Shown here in pieces: positions 9,197-24,000 of a DNA stretch of 24,000 nucleotides. The number at the start of each line of letters is the position of its first letter. Positions within the stretch are counted from its first letter, which is position 1. The translations under genes and the position numbers were made by a program. The notes under the pieces were generated by a model. That model made no database searches. It was given only the letters and a program-made list of their open reading frames with translations, and was not told the origin of the DNA. The stretch is from Mixta tenebrionis (lineage in GTDB: Bacteria; Pseudomonadota; Gammaproteobacteria; Enterobacterales; Enterobacteriaceae): positions 175,778 through 199,777 of the forward strand of contig NZ_VHQI01000002.1 in the NCBI RefSeq assembly GCF_006517625.1, in the 5' to 3' direction.

Positions 9197-12100
9197 TCAC
9201 ATCGTCCAATGATTCGAAATAACTTCCGCTTGTTTTAAAATTAACTCCACCGCACCCGCTGTTTTATCTGGCGGATATTTATACCGACGCAGAGTCTGTC
9301 GAACCAGAATACGCAACCTTGCACGAACGCTTTCGCGCACTTGCCAGTCCACCGTTGTGGATTGCCGCAGCTTCAGCGTCACTTCTATCGCCAGCTTCTT
9401 AAGTACCTCATCCCCCAACTCACGAACGGCGCTTTCGTTTTCTGCCAGTGCGTCGTAGAAGGCGATTTCGTCAGGATTCAGGCCAAGTGCATCATCACGC
9501 GCCATTGCGGACTGAAAATCCTTCGCCATCTGGATCAGCTCTTCAATCACCTGCGCCGTCTCAATAGCTCGGTTGTTGTATTTAATCAACACTGCCTGAA
9601 GACGTTCAGAATACTTCTTCTCCTGCACTACGTTATTTTTAGTTCGGGACTGGATACCATCATTAATCAGTTTTTCCAGCAATTCTACCGCCAGGTTGCG
9701 ATATGGCATATCGTGGACTTCCTGCAAAAACTCATCAGAAAGTAAGCCAATATTGGGCTTATCCAGCCCGGCTAGCGTGAAAATATCATCCACGCCATTA
9801 GCAATTACGGCATTATCCAGAATCTGTTTCAGTGCGGAGTTCTTCTCGGCCTGGCTTATTTTTTTGTCCACGCTGGTGAATTTACTGATAGCGGCCTTCA
9901 CCGCAGACAAGAAAGCAATCTCCAGTTTATAAGGCTGCGCCGCGTCCAGCGTACAGCAAAGCGACCAGGCTTTAGTAATTGCCAGTACGTTATCAAGAAA
10001 ACGCTTCTTACCGTCCTCAAGGCCGAGCACGTAGTTTGCAACAGGCACCAACAGCTTTTGTGCGTGAGCTTCAAAGCCGGTGTAGTCAAAACCCGCTGAC
10101 GTTGCTGTTTTGGCAAACATACCGTGGATGATGTCCAGCTTTTCCAGCATGATTGCCAGCGCTTCTTCGGCATTAATGGTCGCATCGCCTTTACCGTTTG
10201 CATCGGTATAGGTTTTCAGCGCTAGTTTCAGTTCATTGGCTATTCCGATGTAATCAACCACCAGCCCGCCGGGTTTATCTTTAAATACCCGGTTGACGCG
10301 GGCAATGGCCTGCATCAGGTTATGTCCGCGCATTGGTTTGTCGATATACATAGTGTGGCAGCAAGGGGCGTCGAAGCCGGTCAGCCACATATCGCGCACA
10401 ATCACCAGCTTCAGCGGATCGTTCACATTCTTGAAGCGTGACTCTAGTCGTTTTTTAGTTCGCTTGTTGTAGATATGCGGTTGCAGCATTGCCTTATCGG
10501 ACGCTGTACCGGTCATCACGATTTTGATTTGTCCTTTTTCAGGATCGTCATTGTGCCACTCCGGGCGTAGCGCGATAATTTCATCGTAAAGATGGACGCA
10601 GATTTCTCGGCTCATCGCGACAATCATCGCCTTGCCGTCCATTACGGTATTGCGCTTCTCAAAGTGGGAAATCAGATCGGCGGCAATCTGTTGAAGCCGT
10701 GGTTTTGCACCAACCAGTTTCTCCAGACGGCTCCATTCACCTTTGGTTTTTTCACGCAGGTCCAGCTCATCATCTTCAATCAACTCATCAACTTGATCGG
10801 AGAGCGCCGCCAGTTCTTCATGATTGAGATCGAGTTTCGCCAGCCGGGATTCGTAGTGAATAGGCACCGTTGCTCCATCGTCCACCGCATCCTGAATATC
10901 GTAAATTGAGACGTAATCACCAAATACAGCGCGGGTATCGCGATCCTCTGCCGAAACCGGTGTTCCGGTGAATCCCAGAAACGAGGCGTTAGGCAGCGCG
11001 TCGCGCATATGTTTAGCGTAACCGTATTTATAGATGCCGGTTTCCCGGTCCAGGTTGGCTTTCATGCCGTACTGGCTGCGGTGCGCTTCATCGGAAATAA
11101 CAACGATGTTACTGCGTCCATTGAGTACCGGATGGGCGTTTTCCACTTCCTCCGGGGAGAACTTCTGCACAGTGGTAAAAATAATGCCACCAGCATCACG
11201 GGTCGCAAGCAGTTCACGCAGTGCTTCGCGGTCCTCCGCCTGCACCGGCATCTGTTTGAGCAGTTCCTGCGCTTGGCAGAATGTGCCGTAAAGTTGGCCG
11301 TCCAGATCGTTACGATCGGTTACGACCACAATCGTTGGGTTGCCCATCTCCGGCTGTTGTAGCAGTTTGCCGACATAACAACACATGGAGATGCTTTTAC
11401 CGGAACCTTGTGTATGCCAGACCACACCTGCTTTCTTACTGCCAGGCTGAATGTTGCTGTGCAGGGCCAGTTGCTTACCGGTAGCAGCGACAATTGTCGC
11501 CTGCACGGCCTCGCGCACCGCATGGAACTGGTGATAACCGGCTATTTTTTTAATCAGCCTTTCATCGTTGTTCTCGAACAGGACGAAGTAACGGATATAG
11601 TCGAGCAGCAGCTCCCGGTTAAAGAACCCACGCACCATAGTTTCCAGTTGCCATTCCAGCAACGGCTTATCATTTTCATTGCTGATGGTCTTCCACGGCA
11701 TAAAACGTTCTTCCGTGGCCGTCAGGGAACCCACACGCGCCAGATAGCCATCGCTGACAATTAGCGCTTCATTGCTGATAAACAGATCGCGAATTTCATC
11801 TTTATAGGTCTGTAACTGGTGGTAGGCATCCCAGATATCTACTTTGTCGTCGATGGGGCTTTTCAGTTCCACCACCGCCAGCGGCAGTCCGTTAATAAAG
11901 CAGATGATATCCGGGCGACGAGGCTGTTTCGTCCCGCTGATGGTCATTTGATTGACCACCATAAAACGGTTGTTTTGCGGCTGGTTAAAATCCACCAGCA
12001 GAGCGTGATCGTGGATAAGTTCTTCGTCGCGGCGGTATTGTACCGGAACCCCTTCCAGCAGCCAGTGATGGAAGGCTTTGTTACTGGCAATCAGATCAGG

Positions 12101-12331
12101 GCTTTCAGCGCGAGTAATACGGGAGATAACCTGTTCGAAGACGTCTGCGGGCAGATGCGGGTTGATTTTTTGCAGGCAGGAGGCCAACACGGGCGTGAGG
12201 AACACATCATGATAACTGGCGCGTTGCGGGTTACTGCCATCCGGGGCAATATCCGGCCCGTGATTAATTTCCCAGCCTTGTTCGGCAAACCAGCCCAGGC
12301 AAAGCTGTTCTAAGTCGTCTTCGGTTAGCAT
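9197..12331 (-). CDS. hsdR: Type I restriction enzyme R subunit
   Basis: It is 1044 aa. It has an N-terminal PD-(D/E)xK nuclease ([20 protein letters not shown]), a Walker A motif (HTQGSGKS), a DEAH box ([10 protein letters not shown]) and a long helical C-terminal domain. AGGA lies 8 nt before the ATG. Confidence 0.95.
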
Positions 12332-12346
12332 CGGTAACGTCCTGTG

Positions 12347-13543
12347 TTAAACGTGTTCGGCTTCTTCAGTGATAATTTCAGCTTCATCATGCCCGTTAAA
12401 GGTCTGCTTAATCAACTGATTAAGTTCCGGTAGACATGTTGAAAAGGCTTTTTCAAATGTCGTCATATGTTCTACCAACCAGTCGACCATCTCCGGCCAC
12501 TTTTCCTGATCTGCGATGCCATTGATGGGTTTTCTGTAAGTAATACGACAGGATTTCTTATCCGGTAAGGCCTGCCAAACTATTTCATGCCCAAAACGAT
12601 TTTCGATAGCAGATTTGCGTTCATGAAGCCAGTCAAATGCGAATGTATTGGTTTGCGCAGAAGGTTTGGCAATCCAAAGCTCAACTCTCATTTCTTTTTT
12701 GCTGAAGATAAGATTGTACGAAACGCCACTGATGCCAGAACCCGCGCTTAACCAGTGGTCGGTTGATGGGCTGATATTATTGTAGAGTGAACATGAGCTA
12801 ACGCGGAATTTCTCCAGAGCCTGGGTCCAGAACGCCTTACGTAAATGGTGGCGAGCTTTGGATTCTCCAGTCGTGGACTGCTCCTCAGCCTCTTTCTGCG
12901 CCATATCGATCATGTAAGATTCCGCTTCCGGCGTTGGGATAACCTGCTTGATATCAATAAATACATCGTTACCATAACGGTAAGGTGTGACCTTAAAGCA
13001 CTGCACGCGAATATTGAACTGCATTAACCAGAGTGCGGTATTGGTTGCTTCTTTGCGGAAATTTGCTGCGACCATCATGATACGCTGTGAACGATTCTGG
13101 TTAATTTGCACCTCTTCCAGGCTATCGTGCTCAAGAAATTCAGCCAGCACGTCAGCCGCAGGACGCGTTTCTTCTGGTTCGTTCTGATCAAGGTAACGCT
13201 GGAAGATCTCTACGATGTGTTCTTTGCGCAGGTTCGCACAGTAACCCGCATATTTAAGCGCCTGCCAGACGACATCGCGCCCGGAATCATCGAGTTTGTT
13301 CTCAATGATCACCAGATTACCGTCTTTATCGATCGCCAGTAGATCAAGCCGCTCTTTGGTGTCGTCAAACCCGGCAAACTCTTTCTGGATGATAAGTAGT
13401 TCATCATCACTGTTGCGAGTCAATGCCTGCGGATGCTTCGCCAGCCATTCCTGCAAGTGATAGCGTTCGGTGAAACCCGCGTTAGTGAAAGTGGTTTCCT
13501 GGAGCGGTTGTAGGCTATTGCTGGGCTGATCGACTTTAAACAT
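12347..13543 (-). CDS. Restriction-endonuclease-fold (PD-(D/E)xK) plus DUF4268-like protein embedded in the type I R-M operon
   Basis: The N-terminal half reads ERYHLQEWLAKHP...KERLDLLAIDKDGNLVIIENKLDD, a D...ExK nuclease core of NucS/DUF91-like architecture. The C-terminal third (FWTQALEKF...WL..G...ELWI...FDWL...K..IENRFG.EIVWQALPDKKSCRI) fits my memory of DUF4268. The start overlaps the hsdS stop by 8 nt, and the stop is 15 nt from the hsdR ATG. Confidence 0.7.
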   Translation of the reverse strand: MFKVDQPSNSLQPLQETTFTNAGFTERYHLQEWLAKHPQALTRNSDDELLIIQKEFAGFDDTKERLDLLAIDKDGNLVIIENKLDDSGRDVVWQALKYAGYCANLRKEHIVEIFQRYLDQNEPEETRPAADVLAEFLEHDSLEEVQINQNRSQRIMMVAANFRKEATNTALWLMQFNIRVQCFKVTPYRYGNDVFIDIKQVIPTPEAESYMIDMAQKEAEEQSTTGESKARHHLRKAFWTQALEKFRVSSCSLYNNISPSTDHWLSAGSGISGVSYNLIFSKKEMRVELWIAKPSAQTNTFAFDWLHERKSAIENRFGHEIVWQALPDKKSCRITYRKPINGIADQEKWPEMVDWLVEHMTTFEKAFSTCLPELNQLIKQTFNGHDEAEIITEEAEHV

Positions 13544-14822
13544 AGTCAGCTTCCTTTGCTAATTCTTCGGCTTCCGGCAGGGTGATTTCACCGGAGAGGA
13601 GTTTGGGGAGTAGGGTATCGCGGAGTTGTTCCAAGTACATATTTTGAGTTGTATTAACACCAACCTTCTCATAGATACTGGTTAGAATTTCCTCTAGTTT
13701 TTGCCATAGCGCTGTTATCGGTGTCACAATATTCAACCTCATAATGTCTTTAGGATAAACATGAGGCTGGGCTGCTCCTTGTTGCATATGGGTAATTTCT
13801 TTCTGTCTAATTTTGAGTAGAGTATAAAAACAATATACAAACTGTGTTTGAATTTTATTTATATATGAACAGTCTGAAGCCCAAATATTACAATGATATA
13901 AATTAACAAAGCCAGCATTGGCTCCAGAAGCACTTATAGTTATCACAGGCGCAGTAACATTATATTTACTATGGTAGTAAGCTGGTACCAAACCTCCAGC
14001 GACGACAGGAATACCACCTTCTTCGATAGTTTTTTTTGTTATATTTTTCCCTTTCTTAGGTTCAAGGATTGTCCCTAGGCTTTCTAACGCCCAGCCCTCA
14101 GGAATCCCTCCTGACTCGTTTTCCTGCATTGCAGATGGGAACAACTCTGCTGTAGCTCTAAGTTCAGCATATTTTACAGGATGTTTTCGCTCAAATACAG
14201 CCAATGAATCAGTATCCTTTCCGGAAATCGCCGTCATGGCAGCAAGCGTTGCATCTTCTTGCGAACCACCTGCTTCCAGCACCGCGATTTTGGCTTTTAC
14301 CGGTTCAAAATCGACAAACCAACTTTTGAAAAGGGCTTGTGCCATTTGTTCGAGGGTTTGGTTAATATCTTGATTTAAATTTATTTTATTCTCTAAAGCA
14401 AAGAGAGTTGATGCAATTTCTGACTGAATTTTGTAGGAAGTAGGGAATTTAACTTCGAAAGGGTAAACAGCATTTCTATTCAAAGATTTCTGGGCGCTTC
14501 CAGAATTAAACTGTTCAAAATTTATTTGTTTAAGAAAATAATAAATAAACTCTGGGCAGTTACCCTTGAAATCAGAAACATAAAGACAAGTATTCAAAGG
14601 CCAGTAATTTTCTGAGACATAAGAAACCTGCCCCATGGAATTACCACTGCGTCCGATAATTACTCCGGGGCCTTTCGCTTTGAATTGATTATGATAACCA
14701 GTGATCCCTGAAGATCCCATAATTGGTATTTGACCATGTGTTCGATCCTGAGAAGGAAGATCATGACCCCTCTGTAATGTTATTATGTCTCCAAGTTTTT
14801 TTATCTCCCAATTAGCATTCAT
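13536..14822 (-). CDS. hsdS: Type I restriction enzyme specificity subunit
   Basis: Two variable halves are separated by the conserved spacer LEQMAQALFKSWFVDFEPV and closed by its repeat, LEQLRDTLLPKLLSGEITL. The ATG at 14822 overlaps the hsdM stop by 11 nt. The tracked ORF has an upstream extension to 14861. The variable parts are visibly AT-rich. Confidence 0.9.
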   Translation of the reverse strand: MNANWEIKKLGDIITLQRGHDLPSQDRTHGQIPIMGSSGITGYHNQFKAKGPGVIIGRSGNSMGQVSYVSENYWPLNTCLYVSDFKGNCPEFIYYFLKQINFEQFNSGSAQKSLNRNAVYPFEVKFPTSYKIQSEIASTLFALENKINLNQDINQTLEQMAQALFKSWFVDFEPVKAKIAVLEAGGSQEDATLAAMTAISGKDTDSLAVFERKHPVKYAELRATAELFPSAMQENESGGIPEGWALESLGTILEPKKGKNITKKTIEEGGIPVVAGGLVPAYYHSKYNVTAPVITISASGANAGFVNLYHCNIWASDCSYINKIQTQFVYCFYTLLKIRQKEITHMQQGAAQPHVYPKDIMRLNIVTPITALWQKLEEILTSIYEKVGVNTTQNMYLEQLRDTLLPKLLSGEITLPEAEELAKEADYV

Positions 14823-16521
14823 AACCAAGTCCCTTAAGGTTTGCCTTAATCTGCATTTCAAGTTTCACACTGCTTTCAAACTGTTCTTTTAGCTGCGCCG
14901 TCAGTCGCGTCATTTTCTCCGCAAACGGCTCATCATCCTCTTCCTGCTCGGCAGCACCAACATAGCGCCCAGGGGTTAAGACAAAATCATTTTTCTTTAT
15001 ATCATCTAGCGTGGCAGCAAAGCAGAACCCAGCCTCATTTTCATAATCCTTATCCGTCTGCCAGGCATGGAAAGTATCGGCAATCTTCCTGATATCATCC
15101 GACGAAAAGTCGCGTAATACGCGGTCTTTCATAAAGCCAATCTGGCGAGCGTCGATAAACAACACTTCACCTTTACGGTGCGCTTTGCCGTTACCACCTG
15201 ATTTGTCTTTGGTCAGTAGCCAGATACAGGCCGGGATTTGGGTGTTGGTAAACAGTTGACCCGGCAGCGCTACCATACATTCCACCAGATCCGCCTCAAT
15301 AATCGCCCGACGAATTTCACCTTCACTGTTGGTATTGGAACTCATCGAACCGTTCGCCAGCAGCAGCGCCATTGAACCTTTCGGGGCCAGATGGTGGATC
15401 ATATGCTGCATCCAGGCAAAGTTGGCGTTGCCCTGCGGCGGGGTGCCGTATTTCCAGCGAACATCCTCTTCCAGCGTTTTGCTCCACCACTCCTTCATGT
15501 TGAATGGCGGATTCGCCATAACAAAATCGGCACGTAAATCCGGGTGCTGATCGTTCAGGAACGTATCGGCGTTCTGTTTACCGAAGTTAAAATCGATGCC
15601 GCGAATCACCATGTTCATTGCAGCCAGACGCCAGGTGGTAGGGTTGGACTCCTGCCCGTAAACGGAGATATTGCGCTTTTGCTCGGCAGCGTTGTAATGC
15701 TTTTCATCAGCATGCGCTTCGATAAAGCGATCGCTGGAAACGAAGAAGCCACCGGAACCCATCGCTGGATCATAAACACGGCCATTATAGGGCTGAAGCA
15801 TTTCAACAATCAGCGTGACGATGCTTTTCGGCGTGTAGTACTGGCCGCCCTGCTTGCCTTCCGCCAGCGCGAACTGACCGAGGAAATACTCGTAAACGTG
15901 ACCGAGAATATCTTTGCTCTTCAAATTGAGCTTCACGCCATTGTATTTAGGTTCGCTGAAACTGGTATCGGAGAAAACGTTAATCAGGCTGATTAATAGG
16001 TCATTGCCAAGCTGATAGTGCCCGATACGGTTAAGGATGTTTTTCAGTTTCGGGTTGCTGTTTTCGATAGTATCCAGAGCGATATCAATCAGCTTCGATA
16101 CTGACGTCATGACAATATCTTTGCCGCTATCGTCTTTCCCCAGAACCGTCCCTACAGGCAGAGCTGCGTTGGTTTTGAGCGTTTCCCAGCGAGCCAGTTT
16201 GGGCACCCAGAAGACGTTTTTCTCAGTGTAGTAATCCTGAACTTCCAGCTCTTCTGCGATCGCCTGCTGGTATGCCTCTTCCGTGTCGTAATCATCACGA
16301 GAAAGCGCGTAAATGTTGTCCGGGTTGGACTTGTCTTCAAACAGCCCTCTCAGCTCCTTCTGACGGGCGTCAAAGGCATCTGAAACATACTTCAGAAAGA
16401 TCAGCCCCAGCACCACATGCTTGTAGTTGGCCGCGTCCATATTGGCGCGTAGCTTATCTGCGGCTTTCCAGAACTTAGTATCCAGATCGTTCAGAAATTG
16501 CTGTTCAGCGTTGTTCATCAA
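14812..16521 (-). CDS. hsdM: Type I restriction enzyme N6-adenine DNA methyltransferase subunit
   Basis: It has an HsdM N-terminal domain (FWKAADKLRANMDAANYKHVVLGLIFLKYVSD), AdoMet motif I (VYDPAMGSGGFF) and catalytic NPPF (MANPPFNMKEW). Confidence 0.95.
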   Translation of the reverse strand: MMNNAEQQFLNDLDTKFWKAADKLRANMDAANYKHVVLGLIFLKYVSDAFDARQKELRGLFEDKSNPDNIYALSRDDYDTEEAYQQAIAEELEVQDYYTEKNVFWVPKLARWETLKTNAALPVGTVLGKDDSGKDIVMTSVSKLIDIALDTIENSNPKLKNILNRIGHYQLGNDLLISLINVFSDTSFSEPKYNGVKLNLKSKDILGHVYEYFLGQFALAEGKQGGQYYTPKSIVTLIVEMLQPYNGRVYDPAMGSGGFFVSSDRFIEAHADEKHYNAAEQKRNISVYGQESNPTTWRLAAMNMVIRGIDFNFGKQNADTFLNDQHPDLRADFVMANPPFNMKEWWSKTLEEDVRWKYGTPPQGNANFAWMQHMIHHLAPKGSMALLLANGSMSSNTNSEGEIRRAIIEADLVECMVALPGQLFTNTQIPACIWLLTKDKSGGNGKAHRKGEVLFIDARQIGFMKDRVLRDFSSDDIRKIADTFHAWQTDKDYENEAGFCFAATLDDIKKNDFVLTPGRYVGAAEQEEDDEPFAEKMTRLTAQLKEQFESSVKLEMQIKANLKGLGYEC

Positions 16522-16539
16522 AACCTCAAGAAATCATTT

Positions 16540-16645
16540 GTGTCTGGTTCGGGATCCAGGTTGCGGAGAAGCAGGGAAATTGCCAGAGATCATACCCTGA
16601 CGTCAGCGCGATACCAAGATGCAGGGCAAGATTCCGAACCAACAC
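16540..16645. repeat. Imperfect inverted repeat of about 17 bp flanking about 73 bp, immediately upstream of hsdM
   Basis: GTGTCTGGTTCGGGATC (16540-16556) pairs with the reverse complement of GATTCCGAACCAACAC (16630-16645), with one mismatch and one indel. It lies in the hsdM leader/promoter region. Confidence 0.35.
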
Positions 16646-17071
16646 CTTGTGATAAGGAGGATTATTCTTTTGCACTTTCAGCGCAAAATGTCGGTATTTT
16701 TATTTCGCTACCTGGTATTGTGCAGGTCGAGGTAGATCTTGCGATAGCCATAGATGCAACCTGACTCCATTTAAGCCGGTAGTAAATCGCCGCCTGTTGC
16801 AGGCTTAATATCTCAAGGTTGCCCACAGGCTTGCCAGCTCGCTCTCTTCTTCAGGAAGCATTCTGATTTAACAAACAGACACAGCAATATCTCAATTTTT
16901 CTGTGATCAAAATAATCCCATTTTTTTAACATATCAATCATTTTAATCAGCACTATTAAATTAATATTTTTTGATTTTAACTGTAATTACGTTACTTTTT
17001 ATATGCTTATTCTTTGTGGAGGAATTATATTATATCGAACGGATACATAACCCTGGAAAAAGGTTACATCC

Positions 17072-18505
17072 TCAAATTAATTTATTGTTTATTAAAAAAT
17101 TCCACCATGGAATACCAATCAGCATATGGAGAATAAACGTCAGTAAAGCAGTGATAGTACCAATAATCCACCATGATTTAATATCGTTATACCCTGCAGC
17201 AAAGATAATAGGGCCGGCCGCGCCGCCGTAGTGAGTAATGCAACCACCGTAGGAGTTAGAAAACAGAATTGCCAGAGCAAGAAGGACGGGAGCGGTTCCG
17301 GTCACCAGTCCGACGGTGGCAAATACGGGAACCATTGCGGCCACGTAAGCGCCACCGGAGGCGAACATATAGCGCACAATAATGCTTATAAAAACAATAA
17401 TGACGATGGTGCTGTTCCCCGCACCGAGGAAATCCAGGCGCTCAGACATAAACGCCGCCAGCCACTTAAAAAAGCCTTCTTTACTCAGGGTGGCGCTGAG
17501 ACCAATAATTCCGCCGTACCAGATAAGCGTATTCCATCCTCCCTTATTTTGCAGAACATCATTCCAGCAAATGATACTAAAAATAAGCGCTCCAGCCATG
17601 GCGATGACGGCAACGGAAGATTCATGAAGCCCCAGATAACGGCAAAAGATCCATCCCAACAGCGCTGAGATGAACACCACAATTAGTCCTTTCTCTTTTC
17701 CGCTTATCGGCCCCAGTGCATTCAGACCCGCCGTAGCGATTTGTACATTATCGATGCTGGTTAATTGCGGACGCGCGATTTTATAAGCAACCCAGGGAAT
17801 AATTGCCAGCATCAATAGTCCCAGCGGCACAGCGGCTATCGCCCAGCCAGCCCAGCTCAGGTGAATTTGGAAAATATCAGAAATTAACTGTAGCGCCAGG
17901 GCATTTCCGGCAAAAGCAGTTAAGAACATATAGCTGGTGGTTTTGGTGACCATATAAACATTCACCATAAGAAAACGTCCGGCTTTACACGGGCTTTCAT
18001 TTGGTGTGGAGCCTAATGCCAGCGCAATACTGTTAATAATCGGGAAGACGATGCCGCCAGCGCGCGCGGTATTTGATGGCGTGGCCGGGGAGAGAATTAA
18101 ATCCAATAAAGCCGTGACGTATCCCAGCCGCAGGGTTGTACCACCAAATTTTAAAATAAACCAGTAAGCCAGACGTTTTCCCAGTCCCGTTGTCACAAAG
18201 GCGGCGCTTAGCGTAAAAGCGCTAAAAACCAGCCAGGTAGTGCCTGAAGCATAACCGCTCAACACATCCGTCGATTTTACGGGGGAATCGGCAAAGCGCC
18301 CTACTGTAAAACAGGACAATGCCATCGCCGAAAGTATAATAACCGGCTCCGGGTAAGGCTTGCTTACCAGCCCGACAATCGCTGCCAGATAAATCCCCGC
18401 CAGAATCCAGGCTTCTTTCGTTAATCCATCGGGTGGAGGGATTATTAATGCTAATGAAACTATAAAAACCAGAATAATGATTTTAACTTTTTTAGATTTC
18501 AACAT
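17072..18505 (-). CDS. DASS-family di/tricarboxylate transporter, CitT/TtdT-like
   Basis: It is 477 aa and polytopic. It is colinear with E. coli CitT as I remember it (PPPDGLTKEAW..., GLGKRLAYWFILKFGG.TLRLGY, SPATPSNTARAGGIVFPII). It is the last gene of the cit-type operon. Confidence 0.85.
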   Translation of the reverse strand: MLKSKKVKIIILVFIVSLALIIPPPDGLTKEAWILAGIYLAAIVGLVSKPYPEPVIILSAMALSCFTVGRFADSPVKSTDVLSGYASGTTWLVFSAFTLSAAFVTTGLGKRLAYWFILKFGGTTLRLGYVTALLDLILSPATPSNTARAGGIVFPIINSIALALGSTPNESPCKAGRFLMVNVYMVTKTTSYMFLTAFAGNALALQLISDIFQIHLSWAGWAIAAVPLGLLMLAIIPWVAYKIARPQLTSIDNVQIATAGLNALGPISGKEKGLIVVFISALLGWIFCRYLGLHESSVAVIAMAGALIFSIICWNDVLQNKGGWNTLIWYGGIIGLSATLSKEGFFKWLAAFMSERLDFLGAGNSTIVIIVFISIIVRYMFASGGAYVAAMVPVFATVGLVTGTAPVLLALAILFSNSYGGCITHYGGAAGPIIFAAGYNDIKSWWIIGTITALLTFILHMLIGIPWWNFLINNKLI

Positions 18506-18612
18506 GAGTCACCTCAGCTAAAAGCTATGCCATTGGCAGCAGATGCTTCAGTGCAAAAGAAGTCTCTGCTGTATTATAGTGCGGTTTACTAACGCTTAAT
18601 TAATCTGTTACT

Positions 18613-21222
18613 TTAAAAATCCCGCTCGGTAAAACTTTTAATAATATTATTTTTCTGAGGGGTTAACTGATACTCTGGTAATTGATCGAAATTCAAATAG
18701 CGATAGGTATCATCGCGCGTTTCGTGAATTTTATCCATATATTCGAAATATTGTTTAACGGTCGGCATTTTGCCAATAATAGCCGCCACGGCGCTCAGTT
18801 CAGCCGATGCCAGAAATACCTTCGCATCTGTACCCAGGCGGTTCGGGAAATTACGGGTCGATGTTGAGACGACATAGCTTCCTTGCCGTACCCGCGCCTG
18901 ATTGCCCATGCACAGCGAGCATCCGGCAGGTTCGATGCGGGCGCCGGAATGAATAAACTTATTAAAATATCCCTCGCTGCAAAGCTGCTGCGCATCCATT
19001 TTCGTCGGCGGCGCCAGCCAAAGCCGGCCAGGAATTTTGCTGACGTCAGCAAGCATTTTTCCGGCGGCGCGGAAATGACCAATATTTGTCATGCAGGAAC
19101 CAATAAATACCTCATCTATCGGGGTATTTGCCACGTCGGAGAGCAGGCGGGCGTCGTCCGGATCATTGGGCGCGCAGACGACAGGCTCGGTAATCTCTGT
19201 CAGATCGATCTCAATTACCGCAGCATATTCGGCGTTGTCATCGGCAACCAGCAATGACGGGTTTTCCAGCCAGGCTTCGATTTCAGCGATACGCCGCGCC
19301 AGCGTCGCTGCGTTTTGATAACCCTGACTGATCATCCAGCGCAGCAGGGCGGCATTGGAGCGCAAATATTCGGCCACGTTTTCTTCATCGAGACGCAGTA
19401 CGCAGGCGGCGGCAGAGCGTTCGGCGGAGGCGTCGGCCAGTTCAAAAGCCTGTTCCGCCTTCAGCATGCCCAGCCCTTCGATTTCCAGGATACGGCCAGA
19501 AAAGATATTGATCTTATTTTTTTTCTCCACCGTCAGTAACCCCTGTTTGATGGCATAGAGCGGAATGGCGTGCACCAGATCGCGCAGGGTGATCCCTTTT
19601 TGTATCTCACCGGTAAAACGCACCAGCACAGACTCCGGCATATCCAGCGGCATAATTCCGGTAGCCGCGGCAAAAGCCACCAGTCCGGAACCGCCGGGGA
19701 AAGAGATCCCCAGCGGGAAGCGGGTGTGGGAGTCGGCTCCGGTGCCGACCGTATCCGGAATCAGCATTCGGTTAAGCCAGGAGTGGATAATGCCGTCGCC
19801 GGGCCTGAGCGCAACGCCATTGCGGCGGCTGATAAACTCAGGCAGCGTTTCATGCAGCTTCACATCTACCGGCCTGGGATAGGCCGAAGTGTGGCAGAAA
19901 GATTGCATCACCAGGTCGGCGGAAAAGCTCAGGCAGGCGAGATCGGTTAGTTCATCGCGCGTCATCCCGCCAGTGGTATCCTGAGAGCCAACCGTGGTAA
20001 CTTTCGGCTCACAGTATTGCCCAGGACGAACTCCGTCCACGCCGCATGCCCGGCCAACGATCTTCTGCGCCAGCGTAAAGCCCGCACTGGACGGCGCCGG
20101 CGCTTTTGGCTGCCGAAAGACGTCGGACGGCGCCAGCTTTAGCGACTCACGCGCCCTTGCGGTCAGGCTTCTGCCAACGATCAGCGGAATACGCCCCCCG
20201 GCGCGGACTTCATCGAGTAAAACGTCCGTTTTTAGGGAGAATGAGGCAAGCAGGCGCTGGCTGGTGGTTTCGCGTACCTCGCCCCGGTAAGGATAGAGAT
20301 CGATAAGCATCCCCGTTTCCAGCCCGGAAACGTCCATTTCAACAGGCAGCGCGCCGGAATCTTCAAGGGTGTTGAAAAAGATAGGAGCGATGTTTCCGCC
20401 AAAGACAAAGCCGCCGTTTCGCTTATTGGGCACCCAGGGAATATTGTTGCCGATGTGCCAGAGAATAGAGTTTGTGGCGGATTTACGTGAAGATCCGGTA
20501 CCCACAACATCGCCAACGTAGACCAGCGGGTAACCCGCTTTTTTCAACGTTGCCAGCTGTTCTATCGGCCCACGGCTACCGGGCGCATCTGGCGTTACGC
20601 CGTCGCGTGGGTTGCTTAACATTGAAAGCGCGTGCAGCGGTATATCCGGGCGTGACCAGGCCTCCGGGGCAGGGGATAAATCATCGGTGTTGGTTTCACC
20701 AGTGACTTTAAACACTTTCAGGGTGATTTTTTCAGCCAGTTCCGGGCGGCGGGTAAACCAGTCGGCATTGGCCCACGACTGAATAACCTTTTGCGCATGG
20801 ACATTACCCTGCTGTGCTTTTTTTTCAACGTCCTTAAACTTTTCGAAAATAAGCAGCGTGGTACATAATTGTTCTGCCGCCTGGCTGGCCCATTGCGGAT
20901 GGTCGAGCAAATCGATGAGCGGCTGAATATTATAACCGCCCTGCATCGTGCCCAGCAGAGCAATGGCCTGTTGCGGAGCAATAATTCCTGTCGAAGTTTC
21001 ATCTTTAATCTGTTGAGCGAGGAATTCTGCTTTCAGCTTCGCCGCAGGATCGACGCCCGGCGGTACGCGATGCATTAATAATTCAATCAACGTTCCTGTA
21101 TTATCACCGTCGCCGTGCTTTAGCGCCGAAATTAATGCCGACGTTTGTTCAGCCGTTAACGGTTTAGGCGGAATATTTTGCAAAGCGCGTTCTTGTACAT
21201 GCTTATTATAAGCGTCTAACAT
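18613..21222 (-). CDS. Aconitate hydratase B paralogue (AcnB family, full length)
   Basis: It is 869 aa and colinear with E. coli AcnB across the N-terminal HEAT-like domain, TGETNTDDLSPAP, GSQDTTG, GADSHTR, the Fe-S ligand regions IGSCMTN and GCSLCMGNQARV, and TSTRNFPNRLG. Confidence 0.9.
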   Translation of the reverse strand: MLDAYNKHVQERALQNIPPKPLTAEQTSALISALKHGDGDNTGTLIELLMHRVPPGVDPAAKLKAEFLAQQIKDETSTGIIAPQQAIALLGTMQGGYNIQPLIDLLDHPQWASQAAEQLCTTLLIFEKFKDVEKKAQQGNVHAQKVIQSWANADWFTRRPELAEKITLKVFKVTGETNTDDLSPAPEAWSRPDIPLHALSMLSNPRDGVTPDAPGSRGPIEQLATLKKAGYPLVYVGDVVGTGSSRKSATNSILWHIGNNIPWVPNKRNGGFVFGGNIAPIFFNTLEDSGALPVEMDVSGLETGMLIDLYPYRGEVRETTSQRLLASFSLKTDVLLDEVRAGGRIPLIVGRSLTARARESLKLAPSDVFRQPKAPAPSSAGFTLAQKIVGRACGVDGVRPGQYCEPKVTTVGSQDTTGGMTRDELTDLACLSFSADLVMQSFCHTSAYPRPVDVKLHETLPEFISRRNGVALRPGDGIIHSWLNRMLIPDTVGTGADSHTRFPLGISFPGGSGLVAFAAATGIMPLDMPESVLVRFTGEIQKGITLRDLVHAIPLYAIKQGLLTVEKKNKINIFSGRILEIEGLGMLKAEQAFELADASAERSAAACVLRLDEENVAEYLRSNAALLRWMISQGYQNAATLARRIAEIEAWLENPSLLVADDNAEYAAVIEIDLTEITEPVVCAPNDPDDARLLSDVANTPIDEVFIGSCMTNIGHFRAAGKMLADVSKIPGRLWLAPPTKMDAQQLCSEGYFNKFIHSGARIEPAGCSLCMGNQARVRQGSYVVSTSTRNFPNRLGTDAKVFLASAELSAVAAIIGKMPTVKQYFEYMDKIHETRDDTYRYLNFDQLPEYQLTPQKNNIIKSFTERDF

Positions 21223-21279
21223 ATGCTCTCCGAATCAGATATTGCCTACCTGAATAGTGGTCACCTAATAGTTGATGTT

Positions 21280-21852
21280 TTAAAAATGTTCTTTAATATC
21301 GTGCTGCAGACTTTCACCAAATTCTGCCAGCTGCTCCAGACCATAATTCCACTCGCCAAATCCGGACTCGGTATTGATATGCCCGGCTTCGCCAATATCA
21401 ATGACGCGCGCCCCCCAGCACTGCGCCCAAAACTGCGCGCGCTTAAAGGTCATTAGCGGATCGTTGCGGCTCGCAAACATCAGGCTGGCGGTCGGCAGTT
21501 TTTCGGGAAGCACCGCCTCATCCAGTTCGAAGAGGGATGGCTCGGCCGGGGCAACCATAACGATGCCCGCAATATTCATTTTTTGCGTCTGCACCAGCCG
21601 ACAGGAAGCCAGCGCGCCAAAGCTGTGTCCAACCAGAATGGCGGGCAGCTGGCAGGTAGCCAGCTCGCGACGAATCGCGGAAATCCATGTTTCGATATCA
21701 GGCTCCAGCCAGTTGCGTTGCATTATCCGCTTCAGAAAAGGACAACGACGCCCCCAACAACTTTGCCAGTGATGCTCGTCACTGTCTCTCAGGCCCGGCA
21801 CCAGAATAATCGTGAACTGCTCGCTTAACTGTTCCAGACGTTGTGTCGTCAT
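21280..21852 (-). CDS. Alpha/beta serine hydrolase, YdeN/RBBP9-like
   Basis: It has the nucleophile elbow GHSFG. Downstream are NDPLMT (Asp) and EAGHIN (His), as in the YdeN family. GAGGA lies 7 nt before the ATG at 21852. The alternative ATG at 21879 overlaps the citG stop but has no SD. Confidence 0.7.
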   Translation of the reverse strand: MTTQRLEQLSEQFTIILVPGLRDSDEHHWQSCWGRRCPFLKRIMQRNWLEPDIETWISAIRRELATCQLPAILVGHSFGALASCRLVQTQKMNIAGIVMVAPAEPSLFELDEAVLPEKLPTASLMFASRNDPLMTFKRAQFWAQCWGARVIDIGEAGHINTESGFGEWNYGLEQLAEFGESLQHDIKEHF

Positions 21853-21878
21853 AATGTCATCCTCTTCAGTACACTCCA

Positions 21879-22751
21879 TCAGGCCGGGTAGTGGGAAAGT
21901 ACCCAGCCAACGGCAAGGAGATCCGCACTGCCGCCAGGGCTAAGATTTTTTGCAATCAGGGCGTTATCCATATCGATCAGCGCCTTTCTGAGCCTCTCGC
22001 CCGACAGGTTGCGTATCTGCAGGAGCCGCCCGGCGTAGCGTTGCACATACTTCAGCCCGTTCAGCCCGCCCCGCGAAACCACATTGGTATCGGGGTTGTG
22101 CGCCATCAGGGCGAGGAGCATTCTGAGCAGCGCATCCTGTTCCGTTAACCCATCCCGCAGCGCCTTTTCCCACTGGGGCAATCCGAAACGCGTGACGGTG
22201 GTAAAGCCGCTTTCCGCCTCGCCCCGCGCGCCGGTAAGCCCCAGAGTCTGAAAAATATGCTCACCTTTGGTGTTTGCCTGGGTGGATTTTTTGAGCTCGC
22301 CGTCAACCAGCCCTGTACAGATCGCGCTGATTTCCCGGCACAGCGCTCGCTGATTAAGCGGCCTGCCGCCGCTGGCAAGACGGCCCGCGGCAGCGCACAA
22401 CAGACCCAGTGAAAACACGCCGCCTTTATGGGTATTGATGCCGCCGGTGGCGTTGAACATCGCCTGTTCGCACGCCAGCCCAACCGGGCGGATAGCCGCC
22501 AGGGTTTGCGGGGCAGGAAAGTGTGCGGTGGCTTTCCCCTGGGCAAAAAAGCGCGCAAACCAGGGCGAGACGGCGGCAATACTGGCCATAAAGAGCGCGA
22601 GATTCATATCACGGTGCGCGCCGTTATTGGCGCCATCAACCAGCCCCGGTTTCGGGGTAAGCATCACTTCCCGGTACATCGCCTCGCCAGCCAGCCCGGC
22701 GATGTCGGCTACCGGCTCGTTCCGCTTAACGCTGACCGCTAAAGTAGCCAT
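21879..22751 (-). CDS. citG: Triphosphoribosyl-dephospho-CoA synthase
   Basis: The motifs LTPKPGLVD..NGAHRDM, NTHKGGVFSLGLLCAA, LGLTGARGEAESGF and NLSPGGSADLL are colinear with E. coli CitG. Confidence 0.9.
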   Translation of the reverse strand: MATLAVSVKRNEPVADIAGLAGEAMYREVMLTPKPGLVDGANNGAHRDMNLALFMASIAAVSPWFARFFAQGKATAHFPAPQTLAAIRPVGLACEQAMFNATGGINTHKGGVFSLGLLCAAAGRLASGGRPLNQRALCREISAICTGLVDGELKKSTQANTKGEHIFQTLGLTGARGEAESGFTTVTRFGLPQWEKALRDGLTEQDALLRMLLALMAHNPDTNVVSRGGLNGLKYVQRYAGRLLQIRNLSGERLRKALIDMDNALIAKNLSPGGSADLLAVGWVLSHYPA

Positions 22752-23274
22752 AGGTTAAATCCTCAATCACCTGCGCCAGTTGCTGAGGAGAGTGCCGGCG
22801 CATACGGGAGCAGACATGAGCGGGTTCATGACAGATAAAGCATCGGCGCATCGGTTGGTTTATCGCGCTGCGCTTAACCAGTCCGGCGCTGGGGCAAAAC
22901 ACGTCGATATCCCACAGACGGCCAAGAGGGTGGTTATCTTCAAGGTGTGCCGTAACATGTTTGATCATCCAGGCGGGTGCAGAGACAGACCAGAACGCCT
23001 CCGGCCCCGTTGGCAGAAAACGTGTTTCCTGTCTGGTGACCCGCCAGCAGTGTTTACGCAGCAGCTGGTTCAGGCTTTCAATCGCCTGCGCCATTACCTG
23101 CCGGGCGAGAGGCGTATCTTTTATCTCTCCCGGCCAGACGAGGGTGGCGGACACCAACGGCTGGGCGAAGCGGTCCAGCCACTTTTGCTGCACGCTGGCG
23201 CGGGCTTCCCTGGCCAGCAGAACATCCTCAAGGGTGACGGCTGCGGATGACGCCTTTGTCGTTTCGCTAATCAT
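22726..23274 (-). CDS. citX: Apo-citrate lyase phosphoribosyl-dephospho-CoA transferase (holo-ACP synthase)
   Basis: LLAREARASVQQKWLDRF.QPLVS, HPLGRLWDIDV and RRCFICHEPAHVCSR are colinear with E. coli CitX. The start overlaps the citF stop by 4 nt. Confidence 0.9.
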   Translation of the reverse strand: MISETTKASSAAVTLEDVLLAREARASVQQKWLDRFAQPLVSATLVWPGEIKDTPLARQVMAQAIESLNQLLRKHCWRVTRQETRFLPTGPEAFWSVSAPAWMIKHVTAHLEDNHPLGRLWDIDVFCPSAGLVKRSAINQPMRRCFICHEPAHVCSRMRRHSPQQLAQVIEDLTYGYFSGQR

Positions 23275-24000
23275 TGTTTTACCTGCCTTACCACATCAAT
23301 GACGCTGCCGTCGCGATAACGCACCACGCCGACAATGCGGGAAGTAAACTCAATGGGTTTAGGCTCGCCGGAAATGACCAGCGATTTCTGGTACAACGCT
23401 TCGATATCAATCACCGCTAAACCAGCGGCGACCAGCCTCTCTTTCACCTCCGGACGGGCAGGGTTGACGGCGATACCGTGGTCAGTAACCAGTACGTCGA
23501 TACTTTCGCCTGGGGTAACGCGCGTGGTGACGCGACGAACGACGGTAGGAATGCGGCTGCGGATCAGGGGAGCGACCACGATGGTTAAATTCGCAGCGGC
23601 GGCAACGTCGCAGTGGCCGCCGGATGCGCCGCGCATTACGCCGTCGGAGCCGGTCAGCACATTGACATTAAACGCCGTATCTATTTCCAGCGCGCTTAAG
23701 ATGACGATGTCAACGCGGTCGCAGCAGGCGGCTTTAGCGGCCGGGTTAGCATAAACGCTGGTTGAAATCTCAATGTGGTTTGGGTTTTTCGCCAGCGAAT
23801 CCCCGGCAGCGCCATCAAAGCTTTGGGTATCCAGCAGCCTGGTGATAAGTCCTTTCTCGTGCAGATCCACGATGCTGCCGGTGATGCCGCCCAGGGCAAA
23901 GCTGGCGACAATATTCTTTTTGCGCATCCGCGTTTCGAGGAAGCGCGTGCAGGCGGTAGAAGCCGCGCCCGATCCTGTTTGCAGCGAGAAGCCGTTACGA
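23271..24000 (-). CDS. citF: Citrate lyase alpha subunit (citrate CoA-transferase), C-terminal part; 5' end beyond the window
   Basis: The frame is open to the window edge (RNGFSLQTGSGAASTACTRFLETRMRKK...). FALGGITGSIVDLHEKGLI, GASGGHCD, LVTDHGIAVNPARPE and VVRYRDGSVIDVVRQV are colinear with E. coli CitF. Confidence 0.9.
   Translation of the reverse strand, partial: RNGFSLQTGSGAASTACTRFLETRMRKKNIVASFALGGITGSIVDLHEKGLITRLLDTQSFDGAAGDSLAKNPNHIEISTSVYANPAAKAACCDRVDIVILSALEIDTAFNVNVLTGSDGVMRGASGGHCDVAAAANLTIVVAPLIRSRIPTVVRRVTTRVTPGESIDVLVTDHGIAVNPARPEVKERLVAAGLAVIDIEALYQKSLVISGEPKPIEFTSRIVGVVRYRDGSVIDVVRQVKQ

Follow-up and report, generated by a model that had tools for sequence, protein, structure and literature searches.

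A citrate lyase operon that carries an aconitase gene of its own raises the question of which substrate it serves. Such an operon was found in Mixta tenebrionis (NCBI RefSeq assembly GCF_006517625.1). The stretch of DNA analysed here, called the window, is 24,000 nt long (contig NZ_VHQI01000002.1, positions 175,778 to 199,777), and its last part holds citF, citX and citG, followed by the genes of a small hydrolase, an aconitase B paralogue (AcnB2) and an anion transporter of the DASS family. The initial annotation of the window had read this order, with all genes co-directional, and it had proposed that the aconitase feeds a tricarboxylate other than citrate into citrate lyase. The open reading frame listing and our profile searches gave the same order, on the minus strand, and the E. 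coli annotation confirmed that citG is directly followed by citT in that species. Our results suggest that the operon probably serves the conversion of trans-aconitate, via cis-aconitate and citrate, to oxaloacetate and acetate, with pyruvate formed from the oxaloacetate.

The window holds the distal half of the operon only. In the flanking DNA examined (G000:C12:192000-211900; L005), the complete operon, including a divergent LysR gene, was found to consist of 13 genes in about 14.5 kb (G000:C12:192849-207363). The YbhD-like LysR gene is followed on the other strand by isomerase-MFS-FAH-citC-citD-citE-citF-citX-citG-hydrolase-acnB2-DASS; these 12 structural genes are co-directional, and they either overlap or are separated by gaps of 107 nt or less. 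CitC, CitD, CitE, CitF, CitX and CitG, all in order, pass the cut-offs of their NCBIfam models (TIGR00124, TIGR01608, TIGR01588, TIGR01584, TIGR03124 and TIGR03125), and the citF gene, the PrpF-family isomerase gene and the clear PF06821 hydrolase gene of the cluster are each the only one in the genome. The proposal that a tricarboxylate other than citrate enters the lyase through the aconitase is strengthened by this wider view, because the first genes of the same operon, outside the window, encode a PrpF-family isomerase and an MFS transporter and stand next to a divergent LysR gene; the conserved gene order described below supports it as well.

In the pathway that we propose, trans-aconitate, and probably cis-aconitate too, would be imported by the MFS carrier, the DASS carrier or both, and would be sensed by the LysR protein. 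The PrpF-family isomerase would catalyse a 1,3-allylic proton shift that turns trans- into cis-aconitate, AcnB2 would hydrate cis-aconitate to citrate, and the CitDEF lyase, activated by CitC, CitX and CitG, would cleave citrate into oxaloacetate and acetate. The FAH protein would then act as a soluble decarboxylase, turning oxaloacetate into pyruvate and pulling the sequence forward. The equilibrium of the isomerase favours the trans form; that of aconitase favours citrate and the decarboxylation of oxaloacetate is exergonic, so the flux would be pulled forward despite the first step. Citrate lyase works under fermentative conditions, in which the enzymes of the tricarboxylic acid (TCA) cycle are down-regulated. 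For this reason, and because trans-aconitate is a competitive inhibitor of aconitase (PMC11495376), a dedicated aconitase in such an operon is plausible.

AcnB2 scores 1394 bits against TIGR00117 (cut-off 1287, model positions 1-843) and has the Pfam domains Aconitase_B_N, which is the N-terminal HEAT-like domain, Aconitase_2_N and Aconitase. The cysteines of the 4Fe-4S cluster, Cys710, Cys768 and Cys771, are kept in the motifs GSCMTN and GCSLCMGNQ. These observations agree with the initial annotation, which had noted the iron–sulphur motifs and the N-terminal domain and had considered the protein competent, and, judged by its sequence, AcnB2 is a catalytically intact paralogue. A second, housekeeping acnB is located on the same contig about 315 kb away (G000:C12:512280-514841); its product scores 1658 bits against the same model and shows 70% identity to AcnB2. 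Two acnB genes were found in all six cluster-bearing genomes tested, namely this genome and five others. The acnB2 gene starts with ATG, while the housekeeping acnB genes start with GTG.

The phylogeny also separated the two types of aconitase. In a maximum likelihood tree of 51 proteins, which was rooted at the midpoint only and in which the Celerinatantimonas branch is long, all cit-linked AcnBs, including those of Celerinatantimonas, fell on one side of a branch with an SH-aLRT value of 99, and all housekeeping AcnBs of Enterobacterales, Alteromonadales and relatives fell on the other side. The housekeeping AcnB of this genome grouped with Mixta. Since AcnB2 belongs to the separate clade, it is not orthologous to the housekeeping AcnB of the TCA cycle. 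The comparison of neighbourhoods, which the initial annotation had named as a check, pointed in the same direction as the tree, with conserved synteny around a clade of cit-linked copies. In 74 housekeeping AcnBs, 438 alignment columns hardly vary; the 12 cit-linked copies compared all keep the housekeeping residue at 354 of them, and at 21 columns this residue was never seen in the cit-linked copies. Several of the fixed differences are close to catalytic motifs, namely P419G, which directly follows the SQDTTG motif, Y753F/L, and P766A, two positions ahead of Cys768. We speculate that the substitutions near the active site may reflect exposure to the inhibitor or fermentative conditions.

The arrangement is shared with other bacteria. 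A survey with AcnB2 as the query against one genome per species gave ten proteins at 78-88% identity, after which the identity dropped to 70% or less. Nine of the ten matches carry the same gene order, in full or, where the contig is cut, in part, and the contig of the tenth (L013) is too short to show its neighbours. The nine hosts are a Raoultella metagenome-assembled genome, Klebsiella michiganensis DSM 25444, Enterobacter chinensis and two other Enterobacter, Kosakonia sp., Kosakonia arachidis, Kosakonia sacchari and Phytobacter diazotrophicus; the closest relatives of AcnB2 are the Raoultella and Klebsiella copies (87-88%). The full order is also present in G273, another genome from the same GTDB family. 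Celerinatantimonas diazotrophica and a congener have the LysR gene and isomerase-MFS-FAH-citCDEF-citG-acnB2, without the hydrolase or the DASS gene, and the order of 12-13 genes is kept across six enterobacterial genera and Celerinatantimonas. Among the enterobacterial clusters, the CitE proteins share 92-97% identity, and CitE passes the equivalog model of citrate lyase.

The DASS gene is present in 7 of the related clusters, and it does not follow acnB2 in Kosakonia arachidis, Kosakonia sacchari, Phytobacter or Celerinatantimonas. In Kosakonia arachidis and Celerinatantimonas, acnB2 comes last and convergent genes follow it; acnB2 therefore belongs to the core of the cluster, and the DASS gene is optional. 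In each of five other cluster-bearing genomes, two citF genes were found beside the two acnB genes; the presence of a separate second citrate lyase in these hosts indicates that the cluster is self-contained. No citX was seen between citF and citG in the Celerinatantimonas-type clusters (L033:8975-10007, L146:9717-10716), and the citG frame there, with 316 aa, is too short for a CitXG fusion. Presumably, the CitX of these bacteria comes from a second cit locus.

Among eight species representatives of the same genus, only one other carries the 14.5-kb cluster (91% identical in DNA), and the remaining representatives matched through the housekeeping acnB only. The cluster adjoins an islet of type I restriction-modification genes (window 9197-17071). 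The patchy presence in the genus and the restriction-modification neighbour suggest that this is an accessory, transferable unit, and the cluster looks like horizontally moved DNA. Among its hosts, Kosakonia sacchari, Kosakonia arachidis, Phytobacter diazotrophicus and Celerinatantimonas diazotrophica are plant-associated diazotrophs. One report on sugarcane gives aconitate as the main C6 acid of this plant (PMC8871043).

The beginning of the operon resembles the tar genes of Bacillus velezensis FZB42, in which tarR is divergent from tarA-tarB. Experiments showed that this system imports and isomerises trans-aconitate, and the cis-aconitate enters the TCA cycle (PMC11495376). The divergent LysR regulator TarR, the PrpF-family isomerase TarA and then the MFS importer TarB constitute the same front end that is found here, where the LysR (PF03466/PF00126), isomerase (PF04303) and MFS (PF07690) genes have the tar-like order and orientation. 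However, the tar system has two structural genes only, while ten more follow in the cluster. The relation was judged by the architecture and by the published identity table (Table S6), in which homologues of TarA, 36-38% identical to it, are recorded for Phytobacter diazotrophicus, Kosakonia radicincitans and Celerinatantimonas diazotrophica (PMC11495376). In the Phytobacter and Celerinatantimonas genomes searched, there is a single PrpF gene, that of the cluster. Neither citrate lyase nor a dedicated aconitase is mentioned in the tar paper (PMC11495376).

A second relative exists in E. coli, to which the first link was a DNA search that matched ybhI. Compared in full length with the annotated E. 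coli locus, the LysR protein is 55% identical to YbhD, the isomerase 61% to YbhH and the DASS carrier 60% to YbhI. The initial annotation had described the transporter as CitT-like, but it is only 31% identical to CitT, with the DASS superfamily alone in common, and this assignment was dropped; the carrier is a YbhI orthologue. Among solved structures, YbhH (PDB 6OTV, E 2e-140) matches the isomerase best, followed by LigU, methylitaconate isomerase and PrpF. The isomerase scored 186 bits against the model of PrpF proper (TIGR02334, cut-off 441) and 515 bits against that of 4-oxalomesaconate tautomerase (NF033377, cut-off 440).

In E. coli, the orthologues ybhDHI adjoin the gene of the aconitase-family protein YbhJ, and thus the pairing of this isomerase with a protein of the aconitase superfamily recurs. 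On the other hand, YbhJ is not an AcnB, and the E. coli locus is devoid of citrate lyase, FAH, MFS and hydrolase genes. No match to YbhJ (NF008503) above the cut-off was obtained anywhere in this genome, and AcnB2 takes the equivalent role in the cluster. The two loci also share a promoter box. In the spacer between the LysR and isomerase genes (G000:C12:206278-206421; L005:14279-14422), we found the inverted repeat ATTAAT-N11-ATTAAT followed by TTGACATTAGAGTTAT. ATTAAT-N11-ATTAAT together with CATTAGAG is common to all related cluster promoters including that of E. coli ybhD-ybhH; the box is kept from this genome to Celerinatantimonas and is slightly diverged in the E. coli spacer. The repeat and the element 3' of it are probably the LysR operator plus the -35 region. 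YbhD is reported to control ybhH and ybhI, with a malate-related phenotype (PMC9068703). K. michiganensis DSM 25444 has a locus with ybhD divergent from ybhH-ybhI and with ybhJ farther on (L180:6969-14472, L181:6438-11919) in addition to the cit-linked cluster (L012), so the ybhDHIJ locus and the cluster are not simply alternatives.

The remaining part of the operon corresponds to a citrate lyase operon of a widespread type. The FAH protein (PF01557, E 4e-57) has HpcE, FAHD1 (6SBI) and 4DBF among its relatives in the PDB. Its gene lies directly 5' of citC in 41 of the 401 sampled genomes of the GTDB order, and one family with genomes of 2.2-2.9 Mb shows this adjacency in 27 of 28 genomes. The representatives fetched (e.g., L141:3406-13947, L144:3695-12949) have a CitAB-type two-component pair and then 2HCT transporter-FAH-citCDEFX(G). 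This is a common arrangement for citrate fermentation, in which FAH takes the place that an oxaloacetate decarboxylase has in other bacteria. The recurrence suggests that citrate lyase in those genomes usually has the FAH protein as its soluble oxaloacetate decarboxylase partner. Both these operons and E. coli citCDEFXG-citT carry the six cit genes in the order seen in the cluster, and the former also share the FAH-citC adjacency with it; the Cit proteins of the cluster are 39-65% identical to their E. coli counterparts. The citrate operons differ in that a CitAB/DpiAB sensor stands there in place of LysR and CitT or a 2HCT carrier in place of the MFS and YbhI-like carriers, and they are without the isomerase, the aconitase and the hydrolase, all three of which are present in the cluster. 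The cluster has therefore kept FAH-citCDEFXG, with the sensor swapped for LysR and the carrier for MFS and DASS, and two enzymes have been added, an aconitase and a PrpF-family isomerase, whose family interconverts the isomers of aconitate. The two added enzymes are exactly those for the steps between trans-aconitate and citrate.

The hydrolase is a small cytoplasmic alpha/beta serine hydrolase of family PF06821, similar to YdeN and RBBP9. The Ser of its GHSFG motif, the Asp of NDP and the His of GHIN do not vary among the orthologues, and the gene comes directly after citG in the enterobacterial clusters. In the Celerinatantimonas-like genus, a homologue with 46-49% identity follows citG in a second locus, FAH-citCDEFG (L171:5152-11649, L156:1501-3440), and this second operon has neither the isomerase nor the aconitase. 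More distant homologues are not located beside cit genes. The occurrence of the hydrolase in a cit locus of the non-aconitate type indicates that it is tied to citrate lyase and not to aconitate. It is most likely an accessory protein of citrate lyase, which by its family and position would act as a thioesterase on the acyl-acyl carrier protein (ACP), either as a deacetylase or as a remover of wrong acyl groups. In the literature, we found no gene for citrate lyase deacetylase (EC 3.1.2.16), an enzyme reportedly purified from Rubrivivax gelatinosus.

The features in the distal half are listed in Table 1. The citF gene is cut by the end of the window and runs on to G000:C12:200568; the full-length CitF has 506 aa and scores 728 bits against TIGR01584 (cut-off 501). 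The junctions were as the initial annotation had given them, with overlaps of 4 nt between citF and citX and 26 nt between citX and citG, followed by gaps of 26 nt between citG and the hydrolase gene, 57 nt between the hydrolase gene and acnB2, and 107 nt between acnB2 and the DASS gene. The hydrolase gene has two start candidates, an ATG at 21852 with GAGGA 5' of it and an ATG at 21879 on the citG stop; with the latter, the gap is replaced by a 1-nt TGATG overlap. Purine runs resembling Shine-Dalgarno sequences are located 5' of the acnB2, DASS and hydrolase starts. A simple scan of the window called no terminator-like site on the coding strand in these gaps, and it showed no convincing internal terminator. 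The number of promoter-like matches was 10, against 6.2 +/- 2.2 expected by chance, and nothing was drawn from them. The Rfam scan of the whole 19.9-kb locus gave no riboswitch or small RNA.

Table 1. Genes of the distal half of the operon, with their positions in the window and the profile matches that identify them.
Feature	Position in window	Strand	Evidence
citF (3' part), citrate lyase alpha subunit (citrate:acetyl-ACP transferase)	23271-24000	minus	PF04223 E 9e-115
citX, holo-citrate lyase ACP synthase	22726-23274	minus	PF03802 E 2e-51; TIGR03124 178 bits (cut-off 105)
citG, triphosphoribosyl-dephospho-CoA synthase	21879-22751	minus	PF01874 E 6e-80; TIGR03125 327 bits (cut-off 272)
PF06821 serine hydrolase	21280-21852, or 21280-21879 with the ATG overlapping the citG stop	minus	PF06821 E 2e-49
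acnB2, cit-linked aconitase B paralogue	18613-21222	minus	three AcnB Pfam domains; TIGR00117 1394 bits
DASS-family anion transporter, YbhI orthologue	17072-18505	minus	PF00939 E 4e-153

Two known systems contain related chemistry. Acidaminococcus fermentans ferments trans-aconitate by way of citrate, oxaloacetate and pyruvate, and the chemistry is the same as that proposed here, with an isomerase, an aconitase, citrate lyase and the decarboxylation of oxaloacetate. This bacterium is, however, a Negativicute, its listed genes are scattered over several loci and do not form one operon, an AcnB-type enzyme linked to the lyase is absent, and its oxaloacetate decarboxylase is a sodium-linked membrane enzyme. 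In the 2-methylcitrate cycle of Shewanella oneidensis, the AcnD-PrpF pair is described (PMC5690661), which also joins a dehydratase of the aconitase superfamily to a PrpF isomerase acting on an aconitate-type double bond; AcnD is AcnA-like and encoded in the prp operon, whereas the enzyme here is AcnB-like and encoded in the cit operon. The initial annotation had known of no description of such a pathway. The chemistry is known from A. fermentans, but we did not find a description of such a gene cluster: our literature search gave no paper in which one bacterial gene cluster unites citrate lyase with aconitate isomerase, and the literature on trans-aconitate with the host genera contained no description of the cluster and no growth phenotype. 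The cluster joins the aconitate uptake and isomerisation of the tar/ybh type with an FAH-linked citrate lyase, and it is the combination at the gene level that is new, while the pathway is known.

Other explanations of the locus have to be weighed against trans-aconitate. It seems very improbable that acnB2 has no functional link with its neighbours and is a relocated or duplicated housekeeping gene standing beside cit by chance. A fully competent aconitase B, which AcnB2 looks to be, would agree with this, but this genome and five others with the cluster also contain a housekeeping acnB of higher score, the order citG-(hydrolase)-acnB2 is kept from Enterobacteriaceae to Celerinatantimonas, and the cit-linked clade lies outside all sampled housekeeping copies. 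The second acnB copies and the separate clade led us to reject the relocated housekeeping gene. An unlikely explanation, though one to be taken seriously, is a general tricarboxylate fermentation operon that mainly serves citrate, in which AcnB2 and the isomerase only extend its use to isocitrate and cis-aconitate, or provide precursors of 2-oxoglutarate when the cells grow by fermentation. The cluster is the only citrate lyase locus of the genome, the scores of CitE and CitF exceed the equivalog cut-offs of true citrate lyase, no gene for a 2HCT (CitS-type) transporter is present elsewhere in the genome, and the carrier of A. fermentans is shared by citrate and aconitate. Nevertheless, citrate reaches the lyase without an isomerase or an aconitase, and the ordinary FAH-cit operon for citrate does without both enzymes and uses CitAB and a 2HCT carrier. 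Moreover, the regulator here is a LysR of the YbhD type and not CitAB, and in five other hosts a separate citrate lyase exists beside the cluster.

It is also unlikely that the substrate is another unsaturated polycarboxylate, such as 4-oxalomesaconate from gallate or lignin, methyl-aconitate, or an acid of the itaconate/citraconate type, with a shifted specificity of AcnB2, of the lyase (e.g., towards citramalate lyase) or of both. The isomerase passes NF033377 and has LigU and methylitaconate isomerase among its PDB relatives, the 21 fixed differences of AcnB2 include P419G and P766A, and AcnB enzymes, according to the name of the NCBIfam family, also act on 2-methyl-cis-aconitate. However, neither a hydratase of the LigJ/GalB type nor an aldolase of the LigK/GalC type is among the 13 cluster genes, to which this search was confined, the rest of the genome not having been searched. 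The 354 conserved columns of AcnB2 and its score above the AcnB equivalog cut-off, the closely similar CitE proteins that pass the citrate lyase equivalog, and the full activation set CitC, CitX and CitG are also at odds with shifted specificities.

Several points speak against trans-aconitate itself. The link between these genes and aconitate is drawn from gene content and comparison. Judged through its orthologues, the isomerase appears to be only about 36% identical to TarA, and its match to NF033377 goes with a nearest solved relative, besides YbhH, that is LigU, an oxalomesaconate isomerase. The TTATAA palindromes of the TarR motif are not the element conserved here, which is ATTAAT-N11-ATTAAT. 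The ybhDHIJ locus has no assigned function, and one study ties ybhD to a malate phenotype (PMC9068703); as K. michiganensis has both loci, the ybhDHIJ locus and the cluster may serve different substrates. The role of the FAH protein as an oxaloacetate decarboxylase is predicted only from family members (FAHD1) and gene position. Finally, since the cluster holds the only citrate lyase of the genome, plain citrate may also be served.

With these points taken into account, we still regard trans-aconitate as the probable substrate. A more extended proposal is advanced tentatively, and taken as a whole it is somewhat unlikely: the cluster would be a self-contained, mobile operon of trans-aconitate fermentation three parts of which would be new at the level of genes: its AcnB lineage would be specialised to tolerate the inhibitor trans-aconitate, its PF06821 hydrolase would be the long-sought lyase deacetylase or an acyl-ACP proofreading thioesterase, the FAH protein would be the standard soluble oxaloacetate decarboxylase partner in many Gammaproteobacteria, and ybhD, ybhH and ybhI would be given a substrate by orthology.

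Trans-aconitate is abundant in grasses such as sugarcane. The tarRAB system, the sole genetically defined bacterial system for its assimilation, ends at cis-aconitate and relies on the TCA cycle. If our reading is true, one transferable unit of 14.5 kb would carry the complete route by which trans-aconitate is turned into acetate and pyruvate independently of oxygen; the hosts of this unit are mostly plant-associated and gut enterobacteria. It would offer a substrate hypothesis for the E. coli ybhDHI orthologues and a possible reason why the genome keeps a second AcnB, and it would provide candidate genes for two activities that accompany citrate lyase, the soluble oxaloacetate decarboxylase and the lyase deacetylase.

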